From contig JBAZSZ010000002.1 in NCBI GenBank assembly GCA_041662205.1, positions 103,266 through 167,265 of the forward strand: a stretch of 64,000 nucleotides of DNA. Direction: 5' to 3'. Below the pieces are notes generated by a model that was not told the DNA's origin, did no database searches, and was given only the letters and a program-made list of their open reading frames with translations. Shown piece by piece: positions 3,128-57,300 of this stretch (position 1 is its first letter; every line of letters begins with the position of its first letter). Source of the stretch: Minisyncoccota bacterium. GTDB lineage: Bacteria > Patescibacteriota > Minisyncoccia > Phycocordibacterales > UBA9973. The position numbers and the translations under genes were made by a program.

Positions 3128-4126
3128 ATGAGACTGTTTTTTATTTTTTTATTTCTTATTTTCTCTTTACTTTTTTCTTCACAGACAGCTTTTGCAGTTT
3201 CTACAACCTCAGCTTCCTCTGATTGCAGTATTACTCTTAAATTAAAAGTAGGTTCAAAGGGTATCGAAGTAGAATGTCTTCAAAGAAAAATAGGGATTGT
3301 GGCTGATGGAAGCTTTGGACCTTTGACTAAAGCTAAAATTGTAGTTTTTCAATCAAATAATGGTTTAAAGATTGACGGAATAGTCGGTCCGCTCACACGG
3401 ACGGCTCTAAATGGTATAAAAGTAGGTAATATTTACCCAGAAGGTTGTATCTCAAATGTAGGATATAGTCCAACGACTGGCAAAAAATGTGATGGTACTG
3501 TAAAAAGTGTTGTAAATAAAGGCTTTAATCCTACTTCTATTCTTACCCCTACTCTTACTCCAAAACTTACTTCCAATAATGTAAATATGGATCAATTTAT
3601 TAAAACAGTGGTAGAAGTAAGTAGAAAATCTGGTTCCAGTGAAGCAAATCTTAAAATCATAGCGGATACTCTCAGGGAAACAATTCTAAATAGTGATGTT
3701 GATTATAATAAAAAATTTGAAGAATTGTTGACCAATGAAAGTAAATTGAGCACTAATTTAAAAACTAATATTTTTGCTTCTGTGTTTGATAAAGTTCTTA
3801 CAAAGACTTTTTCCTTTTTAGGGATTAAGCCTTCTATGGCTTTTGCTGCAACTGGTATACCGTTTGGTGGAGCTTTACTCTTTCCTTTTTTTTGTGAATA
3901 TAATGCAAGCTGGATGATAACTGTTTCACCTCTTCCCCCAACTTTTGTAACCCTTCTCTCTTATTATCCGGGAACTCAAGGATTTGCGAGTTATAATATA
4001 CCTTTTACTCGTTGGTTGCTCGGTGAATATGTAACACCTGGCGTTTGTTTAATACCAGGTGACCCTGTTATTGTTATTCCCACTACAGGTACTATTACTC
4101 CAAAGGTAGGTTCTTCTCCTATTTAG
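3128..4126 (+). CDS. Secreted protein with two putative peptidoglycan-binding (PG_binding_1-like) repeats
   Basis: Signal peptide MRLFFIFLFLIFSLLFSSQTAFA, followed by two repeats of the form GSKGIEVECLQRKIGIVADGSFGPLTKAKIVVFQSNNGLKIDGIVGPLTRTAL. Confidence 0.6.
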   Translation: MRLFFIFLFLIFSLLFSSQTAFAVSTTSASSDCSITLKLKVGSKGIEVECLQRKIGIVADGSFGPLTKAKIVVFQSNNGLKIDGIVGPLTRTALNGIKVGNIYPEGCISNVGYSPTTGKKCDGTVKSVVNKGFNPTSILTPTLTPKLTSNNVNMDQFIKTVVEVSRKSGSSEANLKIIADTLRETILNSDVDYNKKFEELLTNESKLSTNLKTNIFASVFDKVLTKTFSFLGIKPSMAFAATGIPFGGALLFPFFCEYNASWMITVSPLPPTFVTLLSYYPGTQGFASYNIPFTRWLLGEYVTPGVCLIPGDPVIVIPTTGTITPKVGSSPI

Positions 4127-4961
4127 AAGCAAGAGAAATTAGTATTATCCAATCATTGAGCGATAAATCTTCTGCTCTTTTGTTTTCCAGAGATGCCAAA
4201 TCCTTGTTTTGGCAGACATTCTTTAAATTACCAGAGAGTTTTTTTCTTTTATGGGCGAAGCCTGCTTTTACTATTTCCCAAAATTTTTCTTCGTTTATTT
4301 TGTTTTTTATAAAAGTTTTCCTAGAAATATTTTTTATAGAGATAATAGCTGAATCAACTTTTGGTGCGGGAGAAAAATATCTAGCGGGTACCTTCATTAT
4401 TAATTTTGGATCTCCGTAAGCTTTGACTGAAATGGAAAGGATGCTCTCTTTTTGGTCACGAGCGATGATTCTTTTGGCTACTTCATGCTGGACCATCAGA
4501 ACCATAAGTTCTGGTTGATGCAAACCACCTAAAAATTTTTTTAGAATTGCGCCAGTGATATTGTAAGGAATGTTGGCGATTATCTTATAGCGAAGAGATC
4601 TTAAATTTTTAGAATGGTCTGGCCGGGATAGGGACCCGGAGAACCGAGGACTTGATAAAAATTTGAAAATCTCTTCGCTGATATTAAATTCTAAAATATC
4701 CTCATTTATTAAAATTAATTCCCCCCCAGCAATTTCTTTTTCAAACCTTTCTTTTAAAAATTCAAAAAGTTCTCGGTCTTTTTCTACTGCTATTACAGTT
4801 TCAGATTTTTCTAAAAGTTTTTTTGTGAGAGCTCCTTTCCCCGGCCCTATTTCTAAAATTACATCTCCCTTTTTTATTTCACCCGCTTCAATAATTTTTT
4901 TTAAAGCCAGTTCAGACTTTAAAAAATTTTGCCCTAGTGATTTTTTTGCTTTGTGTTGCAT
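4119..4961 (-). CDS. ksgA: 16S rRNA (adenine1518/1519-N6)-dimethyltransferase KsgA/RsmA, carrying an in-frame palindromic element insertion
   Basis: Motifs LGQNFL and EIGPGKGALT (SAM-binding) plus NIPYNIT. The inserted segment SSPRFSGSLSRPDHS is encoded by repeat copy A. Confidence 0.85.
   Translation of the reverse strand: MQHKAKKSLGQNFLKSELALKKIIEAGEIKKGDVILEIGPGKGALTKKLLEKSETVIAVEKDRELFEFLKERFEKEIAGGELILINEDILEFNISEEIFKFLSSPRFSGSLSRPDHSKNLRSLRYKIIANIPYNITGAILKKFLGGLHQPELMVLMVQHEVAKRIIARDQKESILSISVKAYGDPKLIMKVPARYFSPAPKVDSAIISIKNISRKTFIKNKINEEKFWEIVKAGFAHKRKKLSGNLKNVCQNKDLASLENKRAEDLSLNDWIILISLASK
4606..4660 (+). repeat. GC-rich palindromic element, copy A (core ~4614-4652) inside ksgA
   Basis: agaATGGTCTGGCCGGGATAGGGACCCGGAGAACCGAGGACttgataaaa. 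The central CCGGG-ata-ggga-CCCGG hairpin is flanked by the inverted repeats GGTCTGG/CCGAGGACC and by outer ttttnGA/TnAnAAAA arms. Confidence 0.8.
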
Positions 4962-4965
4962 ATAT

Positions 4966-7047
4966 TTATAAGTAAATTGTTTTTATTCCACTAGCCTCCC
5001 CTTCTTTTTCTAATAAATCTGCTGGAATATCAGAAATAAATTCTGATGGAGCATTGATGTTGCGTGATCCAAAAATAGTGCGGAAATTTGCAAAGGATAA
5101 AAATAATTTTCTTCGGGCGCGGGTGAGCGCTACATAGAAAAGCCTTCTTTCTTCTTCACTATCTTCTCCAGACTGTCTCTCTCCTTGTCTTTGGTGCGGG
5201 AAAAGTCCGTCTTCAAGTCCAGTAATAAAAACGTATTCAAATTCAAGGCCTTTTGAGGCATGTACTGTCATTAATTTTATGGCATTTATTGTTTCTTTTT
5301 TCTCCTGATTTATCATTAAAGAATCCTGATCTGAGGCAAGGGAGGCATCTTCTAGAAGTTTTTCTACCCCTGCTCCATTTGTTAAATTGTCATATTTAAG
5401 AGCAAGGGTGGCGAGTTCTTTAATGTTTTCTAGTCTTTCCATATCTTCTTCAGTACCATTTTGTAATTCTTGTTCTATTCCAGATTTTTTGATTACAAAT
5501 TTTATTAATTCACTTGCTTTCAAGTTCGCTATTTTTTCTTTTATTTCTTCTAGTGTTTCGTAAAATTTGCTGATTTTTAACTGCATTTTTATTGGTAAGG
5601 TTTCTTTTTGGTTGGCAAAAATTTTCATCAAAGTTACTTTGCCGATGCCTCGTGCCGGGAAATTTATTATTCTTTTTATGTCAGATAGGCTGTCAGGATT
5701 TAAAGCTGCGCGCAAATATGCGAGAGTGTCTTTAATTTCTTTTCTTTCAAAAAATTTAACCCCTAAAACTTGGTAAGGGATATTATATCGAAGCATCGCT
5801 TCTTCGAGTGCTCGTGATTGGAAATTTGCGCGATATAAAACTGCGACTTCGCTGGCGATGCTTTTGCTCAGGTTCTCGGTCCCCCGGGTCCCTATCCCGG
5901 CCAGACCATTCTCAAAAGCATCACCAGCCCCGTCTATAATTTCTAAAATTTTTGTCGCGACAAATTCGGCTTCATCAGTTTCATCCAGAGCTTCATAGAG
6001 ACTTATCTTTTCACCTTCCACATTTTTTGTAAATAAATTTTTATCTGGCCGGTATTTATTTTTTTTGATTACTTCATTTGCCGCTTCTAAAATATTTTGA
6101 GTAGATCTATAATTTTGTTCTAATAAAATTATTTTGGCATTTGGGTAATCTTTTTCAAAACTTAAAATGTTTTTCAAATTTGCTCCGCGCCAAGAGTAAA
6201 TATTTTGATCGGCATCACCAACTACACAAATATTTTTATTATTTTCAGAAAGTAGCTTAGACATCAAGTATTGCACTTCATTGGTGTCTTGATATTCATC
6301 CACATGGATATATTCCCATTTTTCTTGATAAATTTTTCTGATTTCTGCATTTTCTTTTAATAATTTTGTCGCTTTAAGGAGCAGATCATCAAAGTCTAAA
6401 GAATTCTCTTTCATTTTTTGCTTCTCATATAAATTCCAAACCTGCGCTACTATTTTTCCGAGAGGACTTGAGCCCCCCTCTTCCCTCTCCGCATAATCTG
6501 CTAAATGTACAAACTTTCCTTTTTCTCGCGAGATTATATTTTTTATTTTTTTTGGATCGTATTGTTTTGGATCTATGCCGAGTTCTTTTAAGATATTTTT
6601 AATAAGGGTAGTCGCATCTCCTTCATCTAAAATAGTGAAATATCTTGTAAGTCCTAATAATCTAGCATTTTCTTTTATTATATAAACTCCTAGAGAGTGA
6701 AAAGTGGATACGAAAGGCGCTTCACTGGGAATACTTTTTTGGATGGTCTGGCCGGGATAGGGACCCGGAGAACCGAGGACCTCCGAAAAAGCATTCCCAG
6801 TGAAGCTGTTTTTTATTGCAACATCAATTCTTTCACGCATTTCCTTGGCAGCTTTATTGGTGAATGTCACTGCCAGAATTTTATCAGGAGACACTCCATT
6901 TTTTATTAAATTTACAATTCGGTGCGTAATGGTTTTTGTTTTTCCAGCTCCAGCTCCAGCAATAATCAAAAGTGGTCCCTTCATATGAAGCGCCGCCTCT
7001 TTTTGTTCAGGATTTAGGCCTTTAAGATGTTTTTCGTCTGTATCCAC
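4966..7047 (-). CDS. uvrD: UvrD/PcrA-family ATP-dependent DNA helicase carrying two in-frame palindromic element insertions
   Basis: Walker A GAGAGKTKT, DEYQDTN, and the VLYRANFQSRALEEA helicase motifs. Two extra loop segments, SEVLGSPGPYPGQTIQ and LAGIGTRGTENLS, are encoded by repeat copies C and B. Confidence 0.85.
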   Translation of the reverse strand: MDTDEKHLKGLNPEQKEAALHMKGPLLIIAGAGAGKTKTITHRIVNLIKNGVSPDKILAVTFTNKAAKEMRERIDVAIKNSFTGNAFSEVLGSPGPYPGQTIQKSIPSEAPFVSTFHSLGVYIIKENARLLGLTRYFTILDEGDATTLIKNILKELGIDPKQYDPKKIKNIISREKGKFVHLADYAEREEGGSSPLGKIVAQVWNLYEKQKMKENSLDFDDLLLKATKLLKENAEIRKIYQEKWEYIHVDEYQDTNEVQYLMSKLLSENNKNICVVGDADQNIYSWRGANLKNILSFEKDYPNAKIILLEQNYRSTQNILEAANEVIKKNKYRPDKNLFTKNVEGEKISLYEALDETDEAEFVATKILEIIDGAGDAFENGLAGIGTRGTENLSKSIASEVAVLYRANFQSRALEEAMLRYNIPYQVLGVKFFERKEIKDTLAYLRAALNPDSLSDIKRIINFPARGIGKVTLMKIFANQKETLPIKMQLKISKFYETLEEIKEKIANLKASELIKFVIKKSGIEQELQNGTEEDMERLENIKELATLALKYDNLTNGAGVEKLLEDASLASDQDSLMINQEKKETINAIKLMTVHASKGLEFEYVFITGLEDGLFPHQRQGERQSGEDSEEERRLFYVALTRARRKLFLSFANFRTIFGSRNINAPSEFISDIPADLLEKEGEASGIKTIYL
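5862..5919 (-). repeat. Palindromic element copy B (reverse orientation) inside uvrD
   Basis: ggttctcggtcccccgggtccctatcccggccagaccat, the reverse complement of the family core with variant termini. Confidence 0.8.
6737..6792 (+). repeat. Palindromic element copy C inside uvrD
   Basis: ggATGGTCTGGCCGGGATAGGGACCCGGAGAACCGAGGACCtccgaaaaag. The 39-nt core is identical to copy A. Confidence 0.8.
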
Positions 7048-11218: not shown

Positions 11219-11289
11219 TGCGGGATAGGCGAATCGAACGCCTGCCCAGAGTTTGGAAAACTCTTATTCTACCACTAAACTAATCCCGC
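11219..11289 (-). tRNA. tRNA-Gly (anticodon UCC)
   Basis: Manual fold of the reverse complement. Acceptor GCGGGAT/ATCCCGC, anticodon stem AGAGU/ACUCU with loop UUUCCAA, T-arm AGGCG-UUCGAUU-CGCCU. Confidence 0.75.
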
Positions 11290-11334
11290 TTTCGTTAAAG
11301 CTTCGGCGGGCGAGCCCGCTTAGGCTATAACTTG

Positions 11335-11405
11335 TCGGGCTGCTGGGAATCGAACCCAGTCTAAACGCTCCCAAAGCGCTTGTACTACCGGTATACTACA
11401 GCCCG
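11335..11405 (-). tRNA. tRNA-Pro (anticodon UGG)
   Basis: Manual fold. C1:G72 acceptor CGGGCUG/CAGCCCG typical of bacterial tRNA-Pro, anticodon loop UUUGGGA, T-arm CUGGG-UUCGAUU-CCCAG. Confidence 0.75.
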
Positions 11406-11452
11406 TTAAATTATCAAGCTACAAAAACACATAACTACGCTCATATAATATA

Positions 11453-11863
11453 TCACAAGATAATATCACTTACCACTTTTATTTTCGCTTTTTTGTTTTG
11501 TATATCAAGGAATACAATCAATAGATCCACTTGCCATCCTTTTTCATCAGGTATTTTTTCTGATAAAAGATAAGTTTGTATTGTTCGTGATAAACGTTTA
11601 AGTTTCCATGGGTGCATATTGTCTTCAGGCTTATAGTTATCTTTTGTTCCATGTGAAACATTTTTTAAGGTTTTATGTGCGACTGATTTTACTTCAATAA
11701 AGTGTAATTTATTGGTCTTTTCAGCTACAATATCTATTTCACCCCATTTTTTCGTATAATTTCTATTTAATATTAGAAAATTATGTTTCATGAGAAACCT
11801 TACAGCTATATTTTCTCCAATTTCTCCAGTTTTTTGGGTTTTTGAGGTAAATACTTTTGGCAT
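11453..11863 (-). CDS. yraN: YraN-family (UPF0102) predicted endonuclease
   Basis: 136 aa with the GEIDIVA core typical of UPF0102/YraN. Confidence 0.65.
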   Translation of the reverse strand: MPKVFTSKTQKTGEIGENIAVRFLMKHNFLILNRNYTKKWGEIDIVAEKTNKLHFIEVKSVAHKTLKNVSHGTKDNYKPEDNMHPWKLKRLSRTIQTYLLSEKIPDEKGWQVDLLIVFLDIQNKKAKIKVVSDIIL

Positions 11864-12132
11864 TTTATTTATTGTTTTAAAATAAAATCCTTATTTTAAA
11901 AACAAAAAAGCTGTTTCACGTTTAACATGTTTCACATGAAACATAGTAACAAATTTTTAGTAAATTTTATGTCTTTTACTATAATATCCTTATTTTATAA
12001 GATATATACAGAAAAAATGCTAATAAAAGACAGTTTCATATTGTGTCCTTTATGAACAGTACTAACATAGTTATCCACAATTTTATTAAATCTTTAATTT
12101 ATAAGGTATTATTAAGGGACATCATTTTTTTG

Positions 12133-12203
12133 TGCGGCCAGAGAGAATCGGACTCTCGTCTCATCCTTGGCAAGGACGTGTTCTACCACTGAACCATGAC
12201 CGC
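12133..12203 (-). tRNA. tRNA-Gly (anticodon GCC); the T-loop reads UCCGAUU rather than UUCGAUU
   Basis: Manual fold. Acceptor GCGGUCA/UGGCCGC with one U-G pair, D-stem GUUC/GAAC, anticodon loop UUGCCAA, T-stem GAGAG/CUCUC. Confidence 0.65.
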
Positions 12204-12275
12204 AAATTTATCTATGTATAAAGACCACCGAATATGACCGCAAACTACTTATGTATAAAAACCACCGAATATGAC
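12204..12275. repeat. Two tandem ~34-bp direct repeats, each carrying a pseudo-copy of the first ~17 nt of the adjacent tRNA-Gly(GCC)
   Basis: tatgtataaagaccaccgaatatgaccgcaaa occurs twice. On the minus strand it reads gcggtcatattcggtgg, against the tRNA 5' end gcggtcatggttcagtgg. Confidence 0.7.
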
Positions 12276-12418: not shown

Positions 12419-12490
12419 GCACTCGTAGTGAAATGGATATCACAATAGTCTTCGGAACTATTATTGAGGGTTCGAATCCCCCCGAGTGCA
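12419..12490 (+). tRNA. tRNA-Arg (anticodon UCG)
   Basis: Acceptor GCACUCG/CGAGUGC, D-stem GUGA/UCAC, anticodon stem AUAGU/ACUAU with loop CUUCGGA, T-loop UUCGAAU. A TATAAT-like -10 lies about 30 nt upstream. Confidence 0.7.
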
Positions 12491-14105
12491 CAAAACAAAA
12501 GTGGAACAGGATGTTAAAAATTTAATATCAAAAACACCCAAAGAAGTTTCACATGTAACTAATACGCTCGAAAAAGATGGTTTTGAGGCATATCTAGTTG
12601 GCGGGTGCGTTAGAGATCTTTTGATGTCTAAGGAGCCAAATGACTGGGATATCACAACTAATGCTAAACCAGAGCAAATTATAAGTCTTTTTGAAAAGAC
12701 TGTTTATGAGAATGGCTTTGGTACAGTAGCTGTGGTTGTTCCGCGTGAAACACATCAAGAGGATGTTTCACATGGAACAAACCCTATTCCCTTGTCAGAA
12801 GAGAAAAATATGATTATAGAAGTTACTCCTTATAGAATTGAAGCAAAATATAGCGATTTTAGACATCCAGATGAGGTGAAATTTAGTGATAAGCTGGAGG
12901 ACGATCTTAAAAGACGTGACTTTACGGTTAATGCCATGGCCTTAAACAGTAAAGGACATCTGGTTGATTTTTTTGATGGTATAAAGGACATTAACGAAAA
13001 GACAATAAAGGCAGTAGGGAATCCAGATGATCGTTTTGCTGAAGATGCTCTCAGGATGTTGCGCGCTGTACGTCTTTCCTGCCAGCTTAATTTTTCTGTG
13101 GCTTATGAAACGATGCAAAGTATTTTGAAAAATTCAGAGTTGATAAAAAAAATTTCTGAAGAAAGAATTCGTGATGAGTTTGTAAAAATAATTATGTCGG
13201 AAAATTCCGCGAATGGAATCGTGATGTTACAAAAATTTAATTTGTTAAAAAATATAATTCCTGAACTAGAAGAGGGAATAGGCTGTGAACAATCCGGTGA
13301 GCATATTTACGACGTTTGGAATCATTTACTTCATGCATTAGAACATGCGACAAACAAGAATTGGTCTTTGGAAATAAGGCTCGCAGCGCTTTTCCATGAT
13401 ATTGGGAAGCCCCGAAGTAGGCGTATTGCGGAGCGAATTGATAATTTATCAGGTCCTCGGTCTTTCGGGTCCCTACCCCGGCCAGACCATGACAAATCAT
13501 CAATTCGCTCCGCAAAGAAAAAATTTACTTTTTACGGTCATGAAGTTGTCAGCACGCGGATGGCAAAAAAAATAATGGAGAGATTAAAATTTCCTAAAAA
13601 AGAAATTGAGTTAGTAGAAAAACTTGTTCGCAATCATATGTTTTTTTCTGACACAGAATTAATCACGCTGTCAGCCGTGCGAAGAATTATTGCAAAAGTT
13701 GGAAAAGAAAATATTTGGTTATTGATGAATGTCCGTGAGTGCGACAGGGTAGGGATGAAGAAAAAAGAAACCCCATATCGCCTTCGGAAGTATTTTGCCA
13801 TGATTGAGGAAGCCCTGAGAGATCCTATTTCTGTCGGACAGTTGAAAATCAACGGTGAATTTATGATAAAAGAGCTTGGAATCACTCCCGGACCACGCAT
13901 GGGGTGGATTTTACATGCATTACTCGAAGAAGTGCTAGATGCTCCGGAGAAAAACACGGTAGAACATCTGTCGGAGTTGGTAAAATCTTTAAATATGTTG
14001 GGGGATACAGAACTAAAAACTCTTGGTCTACGTGGAAAAGAAAAAAAAGAAGAATTAGAAGAAGAAGAGGTTGTGAAGCTTCACAAAAAGCATGGAGTGA
14101 AATAA
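12486..14105 (+). CDS. cca: CCA-adding tRNA nucleotidyltransferase with an HD domain, carrying an in-frame palindromic element insertion
   Basis: GGCVRDLL, RRDFTVNA, and the HD motif LFHDIGKP...FYGHE with about 26 extra residues (..NLSGPRSFGSLPRPDHD..) between GKP and FYGHE, encoded by repeat copy D. The start is a GTG at 12486 (overlaps the tRNA-Arg 3' end by 5 nt) or at 12501; there is no early in-frame ATG. Confidence 0.8.
   Translation: MHKTKVEQDVKNLISKTPKEVSHVTNTLEKDGFEAYLVGGCVRDLLMSKEPNDWDITTNAKPEQIISLFEKTVYENGFGTVAVVVPRETHQEDVSHGTNPIPLSEEKNMIIEVTPYRIEAKYSDFRHPDEVKFSDKLEDDLKRRDFTVNAMALNSKGHLVDFFDGIKDINEKTIKAVGNPDDRFAEDALRMLRAVRLSCQLNFSVAYETMQSILKNSELIKKISEERIRDEFVKIIMSENSANGIVMLQKFNLLKNIIPELEEGIGCEQSGEHIYDVWNHLLHALEHATNKNWSLEIRLAALFHDIGKPRSRRIAERIDNLSGPRSFGSLPRPDHDKSSIRSAKKKFTFYGHEVVSTRMAKKIMERLKFPKKEIELVEKLVRNHMFFSDTELITLSAVRRIIAKVGKENIWLLMNVRECDRVGMKKKETPYRLRKYFAMIEEALRDPISVGQLKINGEFMIKELGITPGPRMGWILHALLEEVLDAPEKNTVEHLSELVKSLNMLGDTELKTLGLRGKEKKEELEEEEVVKLHKKHGVK
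13443..13499 (-). repeat. Palindromic element copy D (reverse orientation) inside cca
   Basis: aggtcctcggtctttcgggtccctaccccggccagaccatgac. The variant central hairpin ttcggg/ccccgg contains one G-U-type mismatch. Confidence 0.75.
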
Positions 14106-19831: not shown

Positions 19832-19838
19832 AGGAAGG

Positions 19839-19970
19839 TTTTTAAAATTCTTTCTTGGCATACTTTTTATAAAGCAATCTATCTGGCGAAGCTTCGCCAG
19901 CGAACTGCTCGGCTCGTCAGCCTGCGCAAGGCTTTCTAAAAAATACGCCTGCAACAAATTTTAAAAATCT
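19839..19970. repeat. Structured GC-rich intergenic element, family T1, copy 1 (downstream of rpsO)
   Basis: tttttataaagcAATCTATCTGGCGAAGCTTCGCCAGCGAACTGCTCGGCTCGTCAGCCTGCGCAAGgctttctaaaaaa, with outer AT-rich inverted arms. It ends at the TATAAT of the NYN gene. Confidence 0.7.
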
Positions 19971-22791: not shown

Positions 22792-22818
22792 AATTCTTTA
22801 TTTTATAAACTTTTCTTT

Positions 22819-22888
22819 GGTACGGATTTTTTGAAGCTTAAAAAATCCTGAAGTTCTCGGCTCGTCAGCCTCGAAACCCCGCGAAAAG
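22819..22888 (+). repeat. Structured intergenic element, family T2, copy 1 (downstream of pnp)
   Basis: GGTACGGATTTTTTgaagcttAAAAAATCCTGAAGTTCTCGGCTCGTCAGCCTCGAAACCCC. It shares the CTCGGCTCGTCAGCC core with T1. Confidence 0.7.
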
Positions 22889-22913
22889 TTATATAATAAA
22901 GAATTAACGCTAT

Positions 22914-25349: not shown

Positions 25350-26966
25350 ATGAGTTTTGCCAAAGTTTATTCAGCGCAAGTTAATTTACTCAAGGGTTCT
25401 ATCGTGACTATTGAAGTAGATCTCTCAAAAGGGCTCCACTCTTTTAGCTTGGTTGGTTTGCCGGACAAAGCGGTGGATGAATCCAAAGATAGAGTAAGCG
25501 GAGCCATAAAAAATTCTGGCTTTAAATCTCCCAAAGCAAAAAATCAAAAGATAATAGTTTCGCTTTCACCGGCTGATTTGAAAAAGGAGGGCCCTTTTTT
25601 TGATTTAGGAATTGCTTTGTCTTATATGCTAGCGGCGGGTGACGTGAAATTTGATTCAGAGAAAAAGATTTTTTTAGGAGAGCTGGGGCTCGATGGAACT
25701 TTGCGGAAAATCCGTGGGGCCTTACCACTTGCGCAAGAAGCTAAAAGACTTGGTTTTGAAGAAATATATTTACCAAAAGAAAATGCAGTCGAGGCGGCGT
25801 TAGTGGAAGGCATAAAAATTTTTGGAGCAAATAGTTTGCAGGAAGTGGTGAGGCATCTAAGCCCCAATGAGGCCAGCAAAATTTTTTCGGGTCCTCGGTC
25901 TGAAGCCAGACCAGCTCAAAAATCTTCTAGCCTCATTGAGGCTGGAGGATTAATTAATATTCAGCCGCAAACAAAAATAAATTATAAAAAAGAAATATCA
26001 CGGATTGATTTTTCAGATATTCGTGGGCAAGAGGGAGCCAAGCGAGGTTTGGAAATTGCGGCAGCTGGCGGACACAATATCGCCATGTATGGCCCACCGG
26101 GCACAGGTAAGACGATGCTTGCTCGGGCATTTTCTCAACTACTACCAGATTTAGATCTTGATGAGGTTTTAGAAATTACAGGCATTCACTCAGTAGCAGG
26201 AAATACAAATGGAGAGTTAGTTTGTTTTCCTCCATTTCGTTCCCCGCATCATACTTCGTCCTATGTTTCTATTATCGGTGGAGGGACATATCCAAAGCCC
26301 GGAGAAGTGACGCTCGCACATCGCGGAGTTTTATTTTTAGATGAATTTCCAGAATTTGAAAAAAGAGTGATCGAATCTCTGCGCCAGCCACTCGAAGACA
26401 ACATTGTTTCAATTTCGCGCGCCAAAGGAAATGCTTGTTTTCCTTCAAATTTTATTTTAGTCGCGGCGATGAATCCTTGTCCTTGTGGGAACGCGACTTC
26501 GAAACAAAAAGCATGCATTTGCAAACCGTCCGACTTAGATAGATATAAAAGAAAATTGTCTGGACCGATTGTGGATCGTATCGATCTCTGGGTTTCTGTC
26601 GGTAACGTTGATTATAAAAAATTAGGAGGCGATGGGGATGGCGAGAAAAGTGAAAAGATAAAAGAAAGAATAATCAAAGCGCGAGAAAACCAAAAAAATA
26701 GATTTAAAAAATTTGAGAAAGATATTAAGAAAAAAATCACAACTAATAGTGAGATGAATGTAAAAGATCTAGGTATGATGGTGCCACTCGGTGGCAAAGT
26801 GAGAGACTTGCTCGATGATAGTGCAGAACGTTTGAGCTTGTCTGCTCGCGCCTATCATCGGATAATTAAAATAGCATGCACGATAGCAGACTTGGAAAAT
26901 TCTCCTGAGGTAGAAGAGCATCATATTTTAGAAGCGATACAATATCGACCGAAAGTTAATAACTAG
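25350..26966 (+). CDS. comM: YifB/ComM-family Mg-chelatase-like AAA+ ATPase, carrying an internally deleted copy of the palindromic element in its linker
   Basis: N-terminal Lon-like domain, Walker A GPPGTGKT, Walker B VLFLDEF, and a C-terminal Mg-chelatase region. The linker SGPRSEARPAQ is encoded by repeat copy E. Confidence 0.8.
   Translation: MSFAKVYSAQVNLLKGSIVTIEVDLSKGLHSFSLVGLPDKAVDESKDRVSGAIKNSGFKSPKAKNQKIIVSLSPADLKKEGPFFDLGIALSYMLAAGDVKFDSEKKIFLGELGLDGTLRKIRGALPLAQEAKRLGFEEIYLPKENAVEAALVEGIKIFGANSLQEVVRHLSPNEASKIFSGPRSEARPAQKSSSLIEAGGLINIQPQTKINYKKEISRIDFSDIRGQEGAKRGLEIAAAGGHNIAMYGPPGTGKTMLARAFSQLLPDLDLDEVLEITGIHSVAGNTNGELVCFPPFRSPHHTSSYVSIIGGGTYPKPGEVTLAHRGVLFLDEFPEFEKRVIESLRQPLEDNIVSISRAKGNACFPSNFILVAAMNPCPCGNATSKQKACICKPSDLDRYKRKLSGPIVDRIDLWVSVGNVDYKKLGGDGDGEKSEKIKERIIKARENQKNRFKKFEKDIKKKITTNSEMNVKDLGMMVPLGGKVRDLLDDSAERLSLSARAYHRIIKIACTIADLENSPEVEEHHILEAIQYRPKVNN
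25884..25913 (-). repeat. Internally deleted palindromic element copy E inside comM
   Basis: ttttcgGGTCCTCGGTCTgaagCCAGACCAgct. Both termini are retained and the central palindrome is replaced by gaag. Confidence 0.6.
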
Positions 26967-32515: not shown

Positions 32516-33322
32516 ATGATTATCGACAAATACAACAAAAGAGCCAAGAAAATAAATTCACTTTTATGCGTTGGTCTGGATACGGATTTTGCAAAAATTC
32601 CAAAAAGATTTTTGAAAAAGAAATTTCCGCAATTTGAATTTAATAAATGGATTATCGAAGAGACCCACGAATATGCCGCTGCTTATAAACCCAATAGCGC
32701 TTTTTATGAAGCTAGGGGTGATAAAGGAATACGAGAATTAAAAATGACGATGGATTATCTGATAAAAAATCATCCAGATATTTTTACGATTCTTGACGCC
32801 AAGAGGGGGGACATAGGAAATACGAATAATGGTTACGTTGCTTCTATTTTCGATTGGTTTGGCTTTGACGCTTTCACTGTGTATCCATATTTAGGACAGG
32901 AAGCAGTGCAACCGATTTTAGATAGAAAAGATAAAGGAGTGATTTTGCTTTGCCGTACTTCAAATCCTGGAGCAAAAGATTTTCAAGATTTAAAGATTAA
33001 TGGAAAACCACTTTGGCAGATTGTGGCAGAGAAAGTTTCTAAAGAGTGGAATAAGAATAAAAATTGTATGCTCGTCGTCGGGGCGACTTATCCTAAAGAG
33101 ATGAAAAAAATTCGCTCTATTGTGGGGGATATGACTTTTCTAGCTCCAGGCGTGGGTGCTCAAGGTGGGGAATTAAAAGAAATGCTAAAAGCTGGATTAA
33201 ACAGTAAAGGTTTAGGCTTAATAATAAATTCTTCTAGGGGTATAATTTTTTCCAATAATCCAAAAATTGAAGCCAAAAAACTACAAGACGAGATTAGGAA
33301 ACACAAGCAGGAAATTAATTAA
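32516..33322 (+). CDS. pyrF: Orotidine-5'-phosphate decarboxylase (type 2)
   Basis: LCVGLDTD and ILDAKRGDIGNT. Confidence 0.8.
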   Translation: MIIDKYNKRAKKINSLLCVGLDTDFAKIPKRFLKKKFPQFEFNKWIIEETHEYAAAYKPNSAFYEARGDKGIRELKMTMDYLIKNHPDIFTILDAKRGDIGNTNNGYVASIFDWFGFDAFTVYPYLGQEAVQPILDRKDKGVILLCRTSNPGAKDFQDLKINGKPLWQIVAEKVSKEWNKNKNCMLVVGATYPKEMKKIRSIVGDMTFLAPGVGAQGGELKEMLKAGLNSKGLGLIINSSRGIIFSNNPKIEAKKLQDEIRKHKQEIN

Positions 33323-33333
33323 AAAAGAAAATA

Positions 33334-33445
33334 ACTAAAATAGGAAAATATCAAAATTTATAAAGCAATCTATCTGGTGTTGCTACACCAGCGAACTGCT
33401 CGGCCCGTCGGCCTGCGCAAGGCTTTCTAAATTTTTTATTTTCCT
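33334..33445. repeat. Family T1, copy 2 (downstream of pyrF), flanked by a perfect 18-bp inverted repeat
   Basis: aactaaaataggaaaata...ataaagcAATCTATCTGGTGTTGCTACACCAGCGAACTGCTCGGCCCGTCGGCCTGCGCAAGgctttctaaa...tattttcctattttagtt. Compensatory substitutions relative to copy 1 in both internal hairpins. Confidence 0.75.
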
Positions 33446-33631
33446 ATTTTAGTTTTCCACTTTTTCCACTTTTATCTAGGCTTGCTTCTGTGTGTAGAAA
33501 TGTTACTATCATTTTTAATGTATCAACAGAGATTAAAAGAGAAAAAGTCTGGGGAAAAGTTTGCCACTTCTATCTTTTTAAGCTCCATTATCAATATTTT
33601 ATTTTAAAACCCCTTTTGGGGTTATTTTTTT

Positions 33632-46605: not shown

Positions 46606-46683
46606 GCTTCTTCCAATTTTTCTTCGGCTCATCCTTCTCGGAGTACCGAGCGGGACCCTACCGAAAGAAAAATTGGAAGAAGC
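46606..46683. repeat. Compound GC-containing palindrome between pilB and pilC
   Basis: cttcttccaatttttcttCGG...CTCGGagtaCCGAG...CCGaagaaaaattggaagaag. An 18-bp outer inverted repeat encloses an inner palindrome. The right arm overlaps the possible TTG start of pilC. Confidence 0.6.
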
Positions 46684-52419: not shown

Positions 52420-52795
52420 TTTTTTTGGCAGCTTCTACTGATTCATTATCTTTATATGTTTTTATTGGAAACATAGGTAGAGCATCTTTTAAATATCTTG
52501 GAATTAGGTGAACGTGGAAATGCGGGACGTCTTTGCCTACGACTGATAACTGTACATAATCGCACCCAATTCCTTTTTTAACGGCTAGTATTAATTTTTT
52601 TGCTAATGTAAAAATTTCTGAAATGATTCCATCATCTGCGTCTTGTATCCAGACAATATGCTTTTTAGGAATTATTAAAAGGTGTCCATCGGAAACTGGC
52701 TGGATGTCTAAAAACACCAAAAAATCTTGGTTTTCATGGATTTTTGTGCAAGGGATTTCTCCTTTGACTATTTTACAAAAAATGCAGTTTTCCAT
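52403..52795 (-). CDS. HIT-family (histidine triad) hydrolase
   Basis: CIFCKI zinc-binding region and HFHVHLIP histidine triad. Confidence 0.75.
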   Translation of the reverse strand: MENCIFCKIVKGEIPCTKIHENQDFLVFLDIQPVSDGHLLIIPKKHIVWIQDADDGIISEIFTLAKKLILAVKKGIGCDYVQLSVVGKDVPHFHVHLIPRYLKDALPMFPIKTYKDNESVEAAKKIIEAL

Positions 52796-52812
52796 AGAAA
52801 GTTTTATAAAAT

Positions 52813-52875
52813 AAAGTTTTGGAATGGTCTGGCTGGGATAGGGACCCAGAGAACCGAGGACCTGAGAAAACTTTG
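52813..52875 (+). repeat. Palindromic element copy F, intergenic (HIT gene / recJ), with compensatory stem changes
   Basis: aaagttttggaATGGTCTGGCTGGGATAGGGACCCAGAGAACCGAGGACCtgagaaaacttt. The stem CTGGG/CCCAG replaces CCGGG/CCCGG, a double compensatory change. The outer arms aaagtttt/aaaacttt extend the palindrome to about 63 bp. Confidence 0.8.
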
Positions 52876-52895
52876 ATTTTATAAAACTTTCTATA

Positions 52896-55082: not shown

Positions 55083-56591
55083 ATGCGAGATAGAATTTTT
55101 TATACAATTTGTTTTGGTTTTTTATTTGGAGTGCTGACGCGCTCTTTTATTTTGGTAGATTTATATTTGGTTATTTTGTTTAGTGTGATTGCTGGTGCAT
55201 TGTTTATATTTTTTACATTAGTCTCAAAAAGTGATTGGACCTGTCTGCGCAGGCAGGGAATTATAGTTTCTATTTTTATTTTGGCTTTTAGTTTAGGTGT
55301 TTACAGATTTAATATGGTGGATGTGCCGAATTCTCTTGTTTTTGAAAATCAAGTGGGACAAGAAGTAACTTTTTCTGGAGAAATTACAGACGAGCCTAGT
55401 ATAAAAGAGAATAACCAGCAATTGATAGTAAAAATAAAAAAAGAAAAAGATAAAACACATATTTTATTAACCACTAATTTAGATATAGATTATAAATATG
55501 GAGATGAGATAAATTTTTTTGGCGAATTAGAAAAGCCGGGAAATTTTATTACTGATCAGGGAAAAGAATTTGACTATATAAATTATTTACGGAAAGATGG
55601 GATTTTGTATGTGATGAGTTATCCAACAATTTCCATTGTTTCGCGCGGGAATGGTAACTCAATTCAAAGCATCTTATTTTCTATTAAAGATAAGTTTTTG
55701 GAGAAAATAAATTTTGCTATTAATGCCCCTGAGAATCTTCTTATGGGCGGGCTTATTTTGGGCGAAAAATCTTCTTTTAGCCAGGAGCTGAGACAGAATT
55801 TTGTGGATACTGGTACGATACACATCGTTGCTCTTTCTGGATACAATGTGACAATTGTGGCTGAATGGATTATGAAATTATTCTCTTATGTAAATTTTGG
55901 CTTGCCTGCACAGGCAGGTATTGGAATGGGAATATTAACAATAATTTTATTCATTATAATGACTGGTGGAATTTCGACCGCTATTCGGGCGGGGATAATG
56001 GCGACTTTGGCATTAGTGGCCCGCGCGACTGGGCGCAACTATGATGTCGCGCGAGCTTTATTATTGGCTGGGTTGTTTATGATAATTCTTAATCCTTTTC
56101 TTCTTGTTTTTGATGCTTCTTTTCAACTTTCTTTTTTGGCGACAGCCGCTGTGATATTTATTGCTCCTAGAATTGAAAAATATTTTCTATGGGTACCGAA
56201 AACTTTTGAGTTACGAGATATAGTATCAGTCACTTGCGCTGCTTATATTTTTGTTTTTCCTTTTATTCTTTATAAAATGGGTAATTTTTCACTCGTAGCC
56301 TTACCAGCTAATATTTTAATTTTGCCCTTTATTCCTCTTACGATGATGTTTGGGTTTGTTACTGGTTTTCTTGGACTTGTTTATTATGTATTGGCAGTGC
56401 CTGTGGGTTATCTTTCTTATTTATTTTTACATTATGAGCTCGGAGTAATAAGTTTTTTTGCTGATCTACCTTTTGCGTCTTTTACTTTTCCAGATTTTCC
56501 ACTTTTGCTAACAGTTTTAATATACATCTATTTTATTTATAAACTTTTTGGCAGAAATATAATAAGTTTTTTTAGAGAAAATCAAGAATAA
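55083..56591 (+). CDS. comEC: ComEC/Rec2-family competence channel protein (DUF4131 + Competence domain only; no MBL domain)
   Basis: Polytopic membrane protein with the Competence-domain motif GTIHIVALSGYNVTIVA. Confidence 0.7.
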   Translation: MRDRIFYTICFGFLFGVLTRSFILVDLYLVILFSVIAGALFIFFTLVSKSDWTCLRRQGIIVSIFILAFSLGVYRFNMVDVPNSLVFENQVGQEVTFSGEITDEPSIKENNQQLIVKIKKEKDKTHILLTTNLDIDYKYGDEINFFGELEKPGNFITDQGKEFDYINYLRKDGILYVMSYPTISIVSRGNGNSIQSILFSIKDKFLEKINFAINAPENLLMGGLILGEKSSFSQELRQNFVDTGTIHIVALSGYNVTIVAEWIMKLFSYVNFGLPAQAGIGMGILTIILFIIMTGGISTAIRAGIMATLALVARATGRNYDVARALLLAGLFMIILNPFLLVFDASFQLSFLATAAVIFIAPRIEKYFLWVPKTFELRDIVSVTCAAYIFVFPFILYKMGNFSLVALPANILILPFIPLTMMFGFVTGFLGLVYYVLAVPVGYLSYLFLHYELGVISFFADLPFASFTFPDFPLLLTVLIYIYFIYKLFGRNIISFFRENQE

Positions 56592-56600
56592 TGTTTTTAA

Positions 56601-56662
56601 GGGGTTTCGAGGCTGTCGAGCCGAGAATTTCAGGATTTTTCAAGCTTCGAAAAATTTGTACC
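56601..56662 (-). repeat. Family T2, copy 2 (reverse orientation) between the convergent comEC and sodA genes
   Basis: The reverse complement reads GGTACAAATTTTTCGAAGCTTGAAAAATCCTGAAATTCTCGGCTCGACAGCCTCGAAACCCC. Confidence 0.7.
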
Positions 56663-56688
56663 GGCAAAAATATTACTCTTGATTTTCT

Positions 56689-57300
56689 CTACTGAGAATT
56701 TTTGAAATTTTCCTCTACCATTTCCCAATTTAGATTTGCGAAAAAGTCTTCAACATATTGTTTTTTACCACTAGGTTGATAGTCTGTCACAAAAGCGTGT
56801 TCCCACATATCAATACCCAAAATCCAATTAAGACCATTTAATTGTCCTAAATGATGCTCATCTATCCAAGCATCTATAAATTGATTTGTTTCTTTGTCCC
56901 AATATAATACGGCCCAGCCGATCCCGCGAGTCATGGCTAGAGATTTAAACTTAGTAAGCCAAGCATCAAAAAATAATCCTTGTTTTTCTATAGCATTTTT
57001 AAATGTAGAATTTGTTGGTAGTGGCCTTGCTCCTCCTTCAAGAGATTTGAAATAATATTCATGATTACGCATGCCGTTGAATTCAAAACCAAATCTTCTA
57101 TGTAATTCTCCTATCAAATAAATAACACCCGGTGTTAATTCTCTTATTTCAGACATTTTGTCATATTCTTCAAGCTTTTCCAAAATTAGGTTTGTGTTTT
57201 TTACATAGCCAGCATAAAGCTTCAAATGTTCTTCAATATTTTTTGAAGAGATACCTTTTAAAGTTCCAATATTAAATTTTTTTTCTTCAAACTTCTTCAT
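56689..57300 (-). CDS. sodA: Fe/Mn superoxide dismutase
   Basis: LHRRFGFEFNGMRNHEYYF and GIDMWEHAFVTDYQ (D-x-W-E-H). Confidence 0.85.
   Translation of the reverse strand: MKKFEEKKFNIGTLKGISSKNIEEHLKLYAGYVKNTNLILEKLEEYDKMSEIRELTPGVIYLIGELHRRFGFEFNGMRNHEYYFKSLEGGARPLPTNSTFKNAIEKQGLFFDAWLTKFKSLAMTRGIGWAVLYWDKETNQFIDAWIDEHHLGQLNGLNWILGIDMWEHAFVTDYQPSGKKQYVEDFFANLNWEMVEENFKNSQ

Follow-up and report, generated by a model that had tools for sequence, protein, structure and literature searches.

The window analysed here (by which we mean the whole 64-kb stretch of DNA) encodes a 16S rRNA dimethyltransferase of the RsmA/KsgA (RrnaAD) type (4119..4961, − strand), a UvrD/PcrA-type helicase (4966..7047, −), a CCA-adding enzyme with an HD domain (12486..14105, +) and a ComM/Mg-chelatase-like ATPase (25350..26966, +), all of which host a short palindromic repeat, UvrD at two sites. 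The 37-nt core of this repeat, GGTCTGGCYGGGATAGGGACCCRGAGAACCGAGGACC, is present in the window as 5 intact copies and 1 internally deleted copy. A search with a 39-mer at ≤3 mismatches returned four matches, at 4614-4652 (+), 5871-5909 (−), 6743-6781 (+) and 52824-52862 (+), compared to 0.00 expected from shuffled sequences, and an nhmmer scan with a profile made from the window copies yielded two more, namely a fifth strong copy at 13436-13506 (−; E = 6e-20) and a sixth, weak one at 25877-25925 (−; E = 7e-4). One of the six copies is intergenic and the other five lie in frame within KsgA, UvrD (twice), the CCA-adding enzyme and ComM. A preliminary description, made from the sequence alone, had claimed six copies, five of them inside these same ORFs. 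Both the count and the host identities held, except that the sixth copy proved to be internally deleted; the peptides it quoted were all reproduced exactly, and a copy number above chance was likewise upheld.

The KsgA copy is a full hairpin at 4589..4679 (+; core 4616-4652, arms 4589-4610 and 4658-4679), which adds 23 codons to the gene, SEEIFKFLSSPRFSGSLSRPDHS. Within UvrD, the hairpin at site A (6719..6806, +; core 6745-6781, 25-nt arms) is translated as GNAFSEVLGSPGPYPGQTIQKSIP, and that at site B (5847..5927, −; core 5871-5907), where gene and element are co-oriented, as GDAFENGLAGIGTRGTENLSKSIA. The copy in the CCA-adding enzyme (13426..13515, −; core 13452-13488, 26-nt arms) contributes 24 extra codons; its N-terminal arm (AERID) is native, and its C-terminal arm (KSSIRSA) is an inverted copy of the AERID arm. 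The intergenic hairpin (52794..52894, +; core 52826-52862, 27-nt arms) separates the divergent genes for a HIT protein (−) and RecJ (+), and has orthologous copies at five of the other loci examined (L039, L044, L118, L128 and L131). Finally, the deleted copy, in the interdomain linker of ComM (25860..25943, −), has lost the inner hairpin and retains the core termini (GGTCCTCGG...CCAGACC), the T/A runs and 26-nt arms; its core remnant at 25890-25912 reads GGTCCTCGG-TCTGAAG-CCAGACC, and a deletion of the same kind was found in L009 and L084.

Each core in the window is bracketed by TTTT/AAAA runs and caps a near-perfect hairpin of 75-100 nt. The cap itself, of ~47-55 nt, consists of TTTT-n-GAAT, GGTCTGG-CCGGG-ATAGGGA-CCCGG-AGAA-CCGAGGACC and TGA-n-AAAA, and folds into an irregular GC-rich hairpin atop a 20-30-bp stem. 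Outside the TTTT/AAAA runs, the arms are copy-specific and complementary to each other, with lengths of 11-34 nt (typically 20-30 nt). The cap termini, GGTCTGG and CCGAGGACC, form an imperfect inverted repeat which remains the most conserved part even where the interior has been swapped or deleted, and which is internal to the longer, copy-specific palindrome. The unit had been described as a nested palindrome of 55-63 bp, and this part of the preliminary description failed; also absent from it were the partly host-derived, copy-specific arms, the sister families, the hotspots and the intergenic location of half of the copies.

When cap stems and arms were tested together as one structure, 86% of cells were paired; the inner stem covaries (CG 47, UA 24) and both sides had changed in 22/28 pairs of the outer helix. 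The covariation score was 0.49, versus 0.14 in shuffles (0/500) and 0.11-0.23 in slid controls. Folding of the element as single-stranded DNA gave z-scores of −3 to −6, and a very stable hairpin formed in either orientation. Arm mismatches on the strand designated "+" were biased toward G·T (83) over A·C (37), with the same direction in all contexts, and this excess follows the orientation of the element, not the transcription of the host gene. In ~70-75% of copies, the "+" strand runs antisense to the host gene or a neighbouring one. A prediction of intrastrand template switching, that G-C and U-A pairs be enriched, was not met, and a purine-rich 5' arm was seen instead; this feature is strand-symmetric and uninformative.

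Genic copies account for 38 of the 75 overall. All lie deep inside intact ORFs, in frame and without stops, the stop-free state extending to the AT-rich arms, and about half of the copies in relatives are intergenic. Five frames are used among the 38 genic copies, and the stop-containing frame not once, where 6 would be expected if frame were irrelevant. This avoidance has a probability of (5/6)^38 = 0.001 under indifference to frame, but of only ~0.11 when the ~12 sites are counted once each. In KsgA, a 1-nt bulge in the arm restores the frame. That five of six frames are open might be taken as a sign of adaptation, a reading we rejected, as base composition predicts it (core, P = 0.73; 55-nt unit, P = 0.05); the claim that ORFs read through every copy held for the five genic copies in the window, with the qualification that open frames are what composition would give. 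The KsgA insert is the sole internal low-confidence (low-pLDDT) segment in an otherwise confident AlphaFold model and the ComM copy sits between the ChlI and AAA domains, which supports the earlier placement of the insertions in variable surface loops. As every genic copy keeps the frame, has no stop and occupies a permissive loop or linker, we infer that these copies are read through into protein, although translation was not observed; predicted tryptic peptides of the translated inserts are FSGSLSRPDHSK and those of the VLGSPGPYPGQTIQK type.

Across relatives, the hosts of the element include KsgA, UvrD, UvrC, SMC, CCA, TsaD, TGT and MnmA. Many hosts are DNA-repair or competence genes (UvrD, UvrC, SMC and ComM, with RecJ adjoining); this observation is uncorrected for the small gene sets of these genomes, in which housekeeping functions dominate.

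Comparison with orthologs revealed alleles that lack the element altogether. The KsgA site is empty in 23/120 homologues, and the protein of one such empty allele (L057) has the length of the window protein minus 23 residues. The CCA site is empty in ~22/120 homologues, which read RR[LIF][AS]Exxx-KKK, and UvrD site A is empty in L009, L019, L037 and L051. Given these empty alleles, the segments at KsgA, CCA and UvrD-A are lineage-specific insertions; ancestral loops would have refuted the preliminary description, and are not what was found. The same three sites are hotspots, in which the element is found either way round, as deleted remnants, or replaced by at least 4 other cap families. Turnover is fast: the state of the KsgA site differs in 44/66 nearest-neighbour pairs (≥80% identity) and often does so between genes ~90% identical, with empty and filled alleles paired at 93% and 89% identity, and a pair 91% identical in which the copy is flipped or re-framed and the arms are completely different. 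Over short evolutionary times, elements thus come and go, change orientation, suffer internal deletions and give way to sister families. This fast turnover among close relatives supports mobility, and with it the proposal of a mobile element tolerated where the encoded peptide is harmless. Many KsgA copies share the same total length and the frame-restoring bulge, however, which points to common ancestry with later conversion of the arms, and not to repeated insertion.

The empty alleles also allowed the arms to be dissected. In KsgA, the K-N-L-E codons present natively in the empty allele (L057) align with the right arm, of which the left arm is an inverted copy that tracks species-specific codons; in the CCA-adding enzyme, it is the left arm that corresponds to native sequence (RR-IAERID). 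At these two sites, one arm is therefore host sequence, and the same may hold at MnmA. Neither junction, compared to its empty allele, shows a direct target-site duplication; the flank is duplicated in inverted form. A fixed polarity of the native arm with respect to the cap can be discarded, as the native arm is C-terminal in KsgA and N-terminal in CCA with the cap in identical orientation. The inner arms can travel with the element, as judged from an intergenic hairpin in the window, I12, and the hairpin in UvrD site B of the closest relative (L139), which share their arms (~93% identity over 78 nt, with one compensated change), and from the arms of UvrD-A and UvrD-B, which have 26/32 positions in common. 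Accordingly, neither simple rule survives: that arms are always local is rejected by whole hairpins common to unrelated sites, and that they are always part of the element is contradicted by what the KsgA and CCA sites revealed and by the unrelated arms of the 91%-identical pair.

The element is not alone in the window, which contains ~13 hairpin-capped elements of at least 5 families, with unrelated cap sequences and the same architecture. Family I12 (46606..46683, +) has 19-nt arms, a T-run, a 40-nt GC core, CGGCTCATCCTTCTCGGAGTACCGAGCGGGACCCTACCG, and an A-run, and is intergenic in the window; its 78-nt hairpin, arms included, is the one found in frame in UvrD site B of the closest relative. 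Family D8 is represented by two intergenic copies, at 19836..19970 (+; conserved GC core 19866-19940, locus-specific 40-nt arms) and 33322..33465 (+; core 33357-33431, different 37-nt arms). Family D13 has intergenic copies at 22792..22905 (+; core ~22837-22887, locus-specific arms) and 56573..56691 (−; 26-nt arms, GAGAAAATCAAGA...), and a third, partial copy at 28341-28395.

Beyond the window, the core is nearly invariant in ~47 species-level Paceibacteria/Nomurabacteria genomes and >120 metagenome contigs. The core halves excluded from each scan were also conserved (CCGAGGACCT in 73/74 and GGTCTGGCYGGGR in 110/120), and copy number is low, with 3-7 exact cores per species representative. Loci L069-L188 derive from groundwater data sets such as the Hainich and Ga0172379-type samples. 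Three apparent outliers were discarded: two (L006, assigned to WS1, and L035, to Chromatiaceae) are chance 22-mer matches in high-GC DNA with the rest of the element absent, and one (L020, 'Solibacter') is a chimeric contig. No copies were detected in the viral contigs scanned, so that nothing points to a phage as vector or parent. Annotation of the window, which covered ~2-32 kb plus the host genes, turned up no transposase, reverse transcriptase or HUH gene, the ~2-32 kb holding only housekeeping genes and a XerC/D-like recombinase, and no longer element with the same ends was noticed in ~190 fetched short loci, although no systematic search was made. In Rfam 15, no family matched the element at the gathering threshold, at which the window gave only 4 tRNAs, and a permissive scan returned only sub-threshold matches to miRNA-precursor-like hairpins. 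An intrinsic terminator was considered and rejected as a general explanation, because the T-run lies inside the hairpin, between stem and cap and not after the stem-loop, half of the copies are inside ORFs, and the intergenic copy beside RecJ is flanked by the starts of two divergent genes. Transcription could still be terminated by some intergenic copies that combine an A-run, hairpin and T-run.

Our preferred explanation, which we consider slightly more likely than not, is that these are non-autonomous foldback insertion elements whose stems are made and kept by template-switch or snap-back copying. Under this scenario, the outer stem would be an inverted copy of the adjoining host sequence, built and held complementary by intramolecular template switching, in which a nascent strand snaps back and copies itself, as in quasipalindrome-templated mutation; the inner stem may move with the element when a copy is made at a new site. 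Interstrand switching would flip the cap in place, and new copies would arise by copying an existing hairpin, probably via microhomology at the A/T runs, without a dedicated cut-and-paste transposase. The "+" strand would be the one that folds during these events. The component processes have precedents: hairpins arise, persist and have their loops inverted through template switching (PMC8794818), foldback inverted insertions of 5-34 bp occur at breaks (PMC11724301), and repeat conversion has been proposed for coding palindromes (PMC6649704). The elements themselves are most likely selfish or neutral passengers. Yet no insertion event was caught in the act, which leaves polarity and enzymology unresolved, and with the native arm on opposite sides of the cap in KsgA and CCA, no fixed polarity emerges. 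Arm conversion alone also fails to explain why the cap varies so little, even in its unpaired loop and bulges; active copies would have to replace it frequently, or selection would have to act on it. A trans-acting enzyme encoded elsewhere is not excluded, as the inspection covered just 64 kb of the source genome and, for the others, pieces of 8-14 kb.

The most serious rival, possible and not excluded, is that of a functional cis-element, in which the cap serves the cell by binding a protein that recognises hairpins or cruciforms, by signalling DNA uptake or recombination, or by yielding a small "+"-strand RNA antisense to most host genes; selection would then keep cap and stem pairing, with coding copies occurring where they are tolerated. 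This reading draws support from a cap that is nearly invariant over dozens of species while the arms diverge, from the G·T excess tied to element orientation, from the predominantly antisense placement of the "+" strand, from the low copy number per genome, from several sites filled in many species, and from the many repair or competence hosts (UvrD, UvrC, SMC, ComM and, alongside, RecJ). A similar gene bias has been reported for neisserial uptake sequences. Against it, any one site is dispensable, being empty, deleted or occupied by an unrelated cap family in close relatives; no Rfam family matches; and the existence of at least 5 unrelated caps with one architecture is better accommodated by a shared mechanism of origin than by a shared ligand.

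We consider it unlikely that the whole hairpin is instead a MITE- or REP-like unit mobilised in trans by a transposase encoded elsewhere, with arm differences reflecting many low-copy subfamilies and compensatory drift. The highly conserved inverted repeat of the termini and the sharing of whole hairpins, arms included, between unrelated sites speak for this possibility, but the KsgA and CCA junctions show a host arm and its inverted copy in place of a direct target-site duplication, the arms differ wholly between 91%-identical KsgA genes, neither a transposase (annotated window part) nor a longer same-ended element (~190 loci, unsystematically viewed) came to light, and the scanned viral contigs held no copies. 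It is less likely still, and by a wide margin, that the hairpin is dealt with at the RNA level, be it intron-like excision from the mRNA by an endonuclease plus ligase or skipping by the ribosome as for the byp elements of Magnusiomyces mitochondria, leaving proteins without the extra peptide. The hairpin is indeed very stable in either orientation, and bypassed GC-rich palindromic inserts are known from a yeast mitochondrion (cited in PMC6649704). However, 38/38 genic copies are in frame and stop-free with the stop frame unused, the KsgA bulge restores the frame, and, because one arm is native, excision of the whole hairpin would take native codons too. Ancestral variable loops, or chance similarity of low-complexity GC-rich codons, are all but ruled out: nothing more than the location in variable regions favours them, whereas the same DNA occurs in four reading frames or orientations as well as between genes, close relatives have empty alleles, and shuffles predict 0.00 copies.

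Among known systems, the Rickettsia palindromic elements (RPEs) invite the closest comparison, being likewise repeated palindromic DNA found in frame in housekeeping genes of a reduced-genome bacterium. RPEs are roughly 100-150 bp long, are read into surface-exposed peptide segments, occur between genes as well, and have no transposase of their own. By analogy, our element looks like an undescribed relative of theirs in ultra-small Paceibacteria. Its hosts, Paceibacteria/Nomurabacteria of the CPR, nevertheless belong to another phylum than Rickettsia; its conserved unit of ~47-55 nt comprises only the cap, with a copy-specific and partly host-derived stem; and its turnover at orthologous sites is fast, whereas RPEs have been described as slowly decaying relics (PMC6649704). 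The likeness to RPEs drawn in the preliminary description therefore held only in part, as a functional analogy; we do not place the element in that family, although no sequence comparison with an RPE consensus was made.

The coding palindromes of Nematomorpha mitochondria (PMC6649704) are similar in being long near-perfect inverted repeats in coding genes with both arms translated, dynamically gained and lost, possibly parasitic, and with arms for which upkeep by conversion or template switching has been proposed. They have no conserved multi-copy cap, however, and both of their arms code for conserved regions, whereas the present element, in a bacterial host, has a conserved GC-rich multi-copy cap, one extra arm and a location in hypervariable loops. 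Yeast mitochondrial GC clusters are short mobile GC-rich palindromes of an AT-rich compact genome, sometimes found in coding regions. These clusters and the byp elements (the latter cited in PMC6649704) resemble our element as GC-rich palindromic invaders of such a genome, but they are organellar, byp elements are skipped by the ribosome while our genic copies are always in frame, and neither is known to have a long host-derived stem. MITE- and REP-like repeats (Correia, ERIC/RU, REPIN-RAYT) are also small non-autonomous hairpins that can add peptides within genes (PMC2759123, PMC2229807, PMC3184786). MITEs, however, have conserved terminal inverted repeats and direct target duplications, whereas here the flank duplication is inverted, and REPINs are extragenic with conserved arms and a variable loop, whereas here the apex is conserved, the outer arms vary and half of the copies are intragenic. 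Closest in mechanism are template-switch mutation, in which one event makes a stem from the flank, repairs several stem positions or inverts the loop (PMC8794818), and foldback repair, which leaves 5-34-bp inverted flank copies at breaks (PMC11724301). Both fit the lengths of the arms, the 'compensated' differences of several bases and the flipping of caps, but are generic mutational processes without a conserved propagating cap. In the literature searched, we found no description of a cap family that repeatedly nucleates such events, nor of elements of this kind in CPR bacteria, and Patescibacteria go unmentioned in a 2026 survey of inverted repeats.

A large part of bacterial diversity belongs to the Patescibacteria (CPR), whose proteins are known for odd insertions and whose genomes are regarded as streamlined, with little mobile DNA. 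The main effect of the elements, we infer, is that housekeeping proteins in this group carry lineage-specific loop insertions of 17-30 residues, for which the hairpins are a concrete and abundant source in CPR core enzymes. Such inserts can mislead homology annotation, structure prediction, phylogenetic alignment and assembly or binning of CPR sequences, and the site states could serve as fine-scale strain markers. With a conserved cap, a host-derived stem, hotspots and fast turnover, the elements also offer a natural system for the origin and upkeep of hairpins by template switching in coding DNA, which has so far been studied mainly via ancestral reconstruction and in one animal mitochondrial lineage.

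A bolder reading, toward which we lean less than away, is that of a class of mobile DNA without a transposase, in which a GC-rich cap with its A/T runs spreads by template switching during replication. The cap would then be a replicator exploiting polymerase template switching: it would prime snap-back synthesis, with the stem made from the host's own flank and the "+"-strand G·T signature marking the strand of foldback, and its source might be incoming single-stranded DNA in naturally competent, recombination-poor cells. Several caps would compete for the same permissive loops in essential proteins. If this reading is true, such caps would be a major source of protein-length variation in CPR bacteria.

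A search of the window with a 39-mer of the element at ≤3 mismatches recovered four matches, at 4614-4652(+), 5871-5909(-), 6743-6781(+) and 52824-52862(+), against an expectation of 0.00 in dinucleotide-preserving shuffles. Two more came from repeat detection and a profile of these copies: a fifth at 13436-13506(-) (E=6e-20) and a weak sixth at 25877-25925(-) (E=7e-4). Because the window has only ~35% G+C, the copies stand out as sharp GC islands. Pfam identified the host ORFs as RrnaAD/KsgA (4119-4961, - strand; one copy), UvrD/PcrA (4966-7047, - strand; two copies), a CCA-adding enzyme with an HD domain (12486-14105, + strand; one copy) and a ComM/Mg-chelatase-like protein (25350-26966, + strand; one copy); the 52.8-kb copy is intergenic, flanked by divergent HIT and RecJ genes. 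The ComM copy has lost its inner hairpin and retains both core termini, the T/A runs and the long arms. The preliminary description, made from the sequence alone, had reported six copies, five of them inside ksgA, uvrD (twice), cca and comM. This count, the host identities and the quoted peptides were all confirmed (we obtained the same translations). The repeat unit, however, is larger than described: every copy forms the tip of a hairpin of 75-100 nt.

Read from the outside in, the 5' side of this main repeat, family 1, comprises a copy-specific arm, TTTT, one variable base, GA, AT and the 37-nt core, which is followed by T, GA, one variable base, AAAA and the complementary arm; the conserved part from TTTT to AAAA is the cap, and arms measure 11-34 nt, typically 20-30. 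The core folds through GGTC-GACC and GG-CC pairing, and an inner stem of CCGGG with CCCGG encloses the 7-nt loop ATAGGGA, while AGAA and GAG, both on the 3' side, are unpaired. Folding energies of the six window copies as ssDNA range from -9.6 to -20.7 kcal/mol, and their z-scores against shuffles from -3.0 to -6.2. In an alignment of 73 copies with distinct arms, paired cells amounted to 86% over the whole tested structure (cap stems and arms), both sides had changed in 22 of 28 pairs of the outer helix, and the covariation score was 0.49, vs 0.14 in shuffles (0 of 500 reached the observed value) and 0.11-0.23 in slid controls. Covariation is seen at the second inner-stem pair (C:G 47, T:A 24, T:G 1), and tandem A·G/G·A mismatches are conserved at the junction (44 and 57 of 75 copies). 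An Rfam family search of the window gave no match for the element. Variants of family 1 keep the termini and have the inner hairpin swapped or deleted. At the CCA site of L056, a locus from a related genome, a further small inverted duplication, GTTGAAATCTG-CCCCGGGA-CAGATTTCAAC, takes the place of the core interior in the copy at ~4978-5055, suggesting that foldback events may also occur within caps.

Just over half of the full copies (38 of 75) lie deep within long ORFs, namely KsgA, UvrD (two sites, A and B), CCA, a DUF4147/MOFRL glycerate-kinase-like protein, UvrC, TsaD, TGT, SMC, MnmA and a class-V aminotransferase. These 38 use five orientation/frame combinations and none uses the stop-containing one; such frame-usage statistics are optimistic, since orthologous copies are not independent. 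At the KsgA hotspot, the stretch from DILEF to YKIIANIPYNI, the site is empty (23-32 residues) in 23 of 120 homologues, at least 50 carry family 1 in four orientation/frame versions, ~9 carry internally deleted or decayed versions, and the remainder hold other insert families or nested doubles. The CCA site behaves likewise, with ~22 empty alleles (pattern RR[LIF][AS]Exxx-KKK), family 1 as +24 residues and many other families, and L009, L019, L037 and L051 have no insert at UvrD site A. Turnover is fast: site state differs in 44 of 66 nearest-neighbour KsgA pairs (≥80% identity outside the insert), empty and filled alleles face each other at 93% and 89% identity, and both members of a pair at 91% identity carry family 1 in opposite orientation and frame. 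L139, the closest relative whose DNA was examined (UvrD 83% identical), has another family at UvrD site A and yet a different one at site B. In the AlphaFold model of the window KsgA, a confident one (mean pLDDT 85.6), the insert at ~residues 100-120 is the sole internal low-confidence segment (pLDDT 49-56). Together, the empty alleles, hotspot states, turnover and low-pLDDT loop indicate that the segments are recent, recurrent insertions in permissive loops; that they are ancestral sequence, which would have refuted the preliminary description, is ruled out. All inferences here are comparative and rest on genome fragments only, without transcript, protein or insertion-intermediate data.

In-frame inserts of the 'QPSPxxGEGG / PSPKERE...GG' type, probably additional element families, also lie elsewhere in these proteins of relatives: in the KsgA C-terminal region of L026, L037, L008 and L060 and in the CCA N-terminal region of L054 and L055. 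The L008 UvrD ORF (1116-aa product) carries a ~400-residue insertion (~residues 300-700) directly after the VGDTDQ motif, with C as its first residue; by appearance only, it could be an intein.

Sister families in the window have the same architecture and unrelated caps, which argues for a shared mechanism of origin. The D8 family (19836-19970 and 33322-33465, both intergenic) has a GC-rich core of ~75 nt, 91% identical between copies, and 37-40-nt AT-rich inverted arms that differ in each copy; one copy lies between XerC/D-like and NYN genes. Its core has CTCGGCTCGTCAGCC in common with the D13 family (22792-22905, 28341-28395 and 56573-56691, all intergenic), which combines a GC-rich multi-hairpin core with locus-specific arms and has open frames in only 2 of 6. 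The I12 family (46606-46683; GC-rich core, long arms) is intergenic in the window, and in L139 (~6780-6880) its hairpin sits in frame at UvrD site B, translated as FASSDFSSAHPSRGTERDPTDEKIGRS. Between MetK and DksA-like genes, the intergenic stretch 24877-25000 holds a perfect 25-nt GC-rich palindrome (TTTCCCCCACCCCAGGGATAGGGGA and its complement, 2-nt spacer), nested in 30-nt AT-rich inverted arms and including GGGATAGGGGA, similar to the family-1 loop. Relatives carry other in-frame families at the same hotspots, for example ERTLGRSDGDGQRKFSAENFRGESEN, SLRPSRxTGWDPRExQNRKG and GVSQADxPRGSAPRARGDSDP.

Tandem coding repeats of 3 x 75 nt (39716-39937; 87% and 67% identity; ORF 39213-40079(-)) and 2 x 84 nt (37360-37527; 95%; ORF 37249-37602(-)) are unrelated to the hairpin elements. 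Four tRNA genes cluster at 11219-12490, and the cumulative GC skew reaches its minimum at ~10-12 kb, coinciding with a switch in gene orientation from the - to the + strand; the minimum may mark a replication origin or merely the gene-strand change.

Without 23 codons, window KsgA matches the empty allele L057 exactly in length and pattern (ILEFNI/KNLRSLRYKII in the window, ILEYRI/KNLEIPSYKII in L057). In all species with a filled site, native K-N-L/F-E codons line up with the C-terminal arm, and the N-terminal arm repeats that arm in inverted form over 17-22 nt, tracking species-specific codons (ATCAGGTGATTCAAAAGTTTTT against AAAAACTTTGAATCACCTGAT in L026, GCGAAGAGATTTTCAAATTTTT against AAAAATTTAAGATCTCTTCGC in the window); a 1-nt bulge makes the insert length 69 nt. 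In CCA, native sequence forms the N-terminal arm (RR-IAERID, cf. RR-LAENST-KKK in the empty allele), and its inverted copy is KSSIRSA. The MnmA C-terminal arm KKYFQL may correspond to the G-K-Y-x-L-L segment of other MnmA proteins. In the 91%-identical KsgA pair, arms are wholly unrelated between the genes and complementary within each, and in one gene native residues have been overwritten by the new arm. L192 (P0077 KsgA) lacks the cap at the KsgA hotspot: the codons around DILEFNPSEAFSSFSKTFHYKII form 14-nt inverted arms with a 9-nt loop, matching the P0029 filled allele (another family) minus its 14-codon core, and may be what a lost cap left behind or, alternatively, a palindrome that predates insertion. 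Arms can also travel with the element. The whole 78-nt I12 hairpin of the window is ~93% identical to that in L139 UvrD, with one compensated arm difference; family-1 arms at UvrD sites A and B have 26 of 32 positions in common; and UvrD-type arms occur on some intergenic copies. The simplest synthesis is a layered stem with inner layers from the donor copy and outer layers copied off the current flank.

An exact 22-mer from the core 5' half was found at 68 loci of a species-representative genome collection, or ~47 assemblies once two chance matches in high-GC genomes were excluded; the label is nearly always Candidatus Nomurabacteria, Paceibacterota, Minisyncoccia or Patescibacteria, and in a few cases Saccharibacteria. 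Beyond this search pattern the core is nearly invariant (CCGAGGACCT in 73 of 74), and among the stretches returned by a metagenome scan with the core 3' half (at least 120) the 5' half, not used for selection, was GGTCTGGCYGGGR in 110 of 120. Both collection scan patterns included TAGGGACCC, and loop conservation thus rests on only ~16 unselected copies. Viral contigs scanned for the element gave zero matches. Window KsgA and CCA are 100% identical to a 186-kb NCBI Candidatus Paceibacterota MAG contig. With exact cores at ~3-7 per species-representative genome, family 1 is low-copy, yet it is one among several families. In L045 (CAWJHU010000001.1) the KsgA, UvrD and CCA ORFs are each fragmented, apparently by frameshift errors in assembly; it still carries both family-1 copies, which counts against a platform-specific assembly artefact. 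L020 (JACPNO010000035.1, a 'Candidatus Solibacter usitatus' MAG) drops from ~62% to ~39% G+C near 5900-6000, with a Paceibacteria-like UvrD bearing the element at the low-GC end, and is probably an assembly chimera or mis-binned.

Arm mismatches carry a strand signature. On the strand reading ATGGTCTGG, there are 83 G·T/T·G mismatches to 37 of A·C/C·A (p=3e-5), or 72 to 37 in copy-specific positions only (p=0.001); these statistics, too, are optimistic, orthologous copies not being independent. The direction is equal in copies antisense to the host gene (40:17), intergenic (32:15) and sense (11:5), and so follows the element rather than host transcription; the preserved feature is not host-mRNA folding. 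The '+' strand, defined by core reading direction, is antisense to local genes in 30 of the 40 genic copies of the alignment set, about three quarters, and, by rough estimate, in two thirds of intergenic ones. Either this strand folds during synthesis or maintenance, or its single-stranded form (DNA or RNA) is under selection; both remain possible, and replication and transcription cannot be separated.

The data fit a non-autonomous foldback element, a reading towards which we lean with reserve, its mechanism being inferred from comparative data only. A cap-bearing hairpin would be copied to a new site, A/T-run junctions suggesting microhomology, and the nascent strand would snap back at the cap and copy the adjacent 10-25 nt of its flank. 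Template switches within a strand would later re-synchronise the arms, which would explain multi-base 'compensated' differences among close relatives; interstrand switches would flip the cap, slippage across the stem would delete the apex or the entire insert, and selection would retain those genic insertions that keep the frame, contain no stops and sit where they are tolerated. By analogy, a precedent is on record for every step: template-switch mutation both generates and preserves hairpins and is able to invert their loops (PMC8794818), foldback synthesis at breaks adds 5-34-bp inverted flank copies (PMC11724301), and for nematomorph mitochondria repeat conversion has been proposed as the process that keeps coding palindromes perfect (PMC6649704).

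What the foldback model leaves unexplained is the near-invariance of the unpaired cap parts, which requires either that caps are constantly replaced from active copies or that the cap is under selection. This is the main reason for retaining a rival in which the cap is selected as a used site, although we consider it unlikely. A trans-acting enzyme might also be encoded outside the inspected sequences; apart from an XerC/D-like recombinase, all genes in the stretch that was annotated (2-32 kb of the window) are housekeeping genes.

Among known categories, a MITE was rejected for lack of a direct target duplication at the KsgA and CCA junctions, and a REPIN because conserved and variable parts are swapped and the present copies are intragenic; for an intrinsic terminator, an Rfam family and a bypass or intron-like insert, the defining tests all failed. 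For Patescibacteria, such elements were not described anywhere in the full-text literature searched, and the phylum goes unmentioned in a 2026 inverted-repeat survey. In behaviour, the elements are functionally similar to Rickettsia palindromic elements and to the GC clusters of AT-rich mitochondrial genomes, and their stems behave like nematomorph coding palindromes. Given this likeness, the failed defining tests and the silence of the literature, we place them among intragenic palindromic repeat elements, within which their mode of stem formation would be distinctive and perhaps new.
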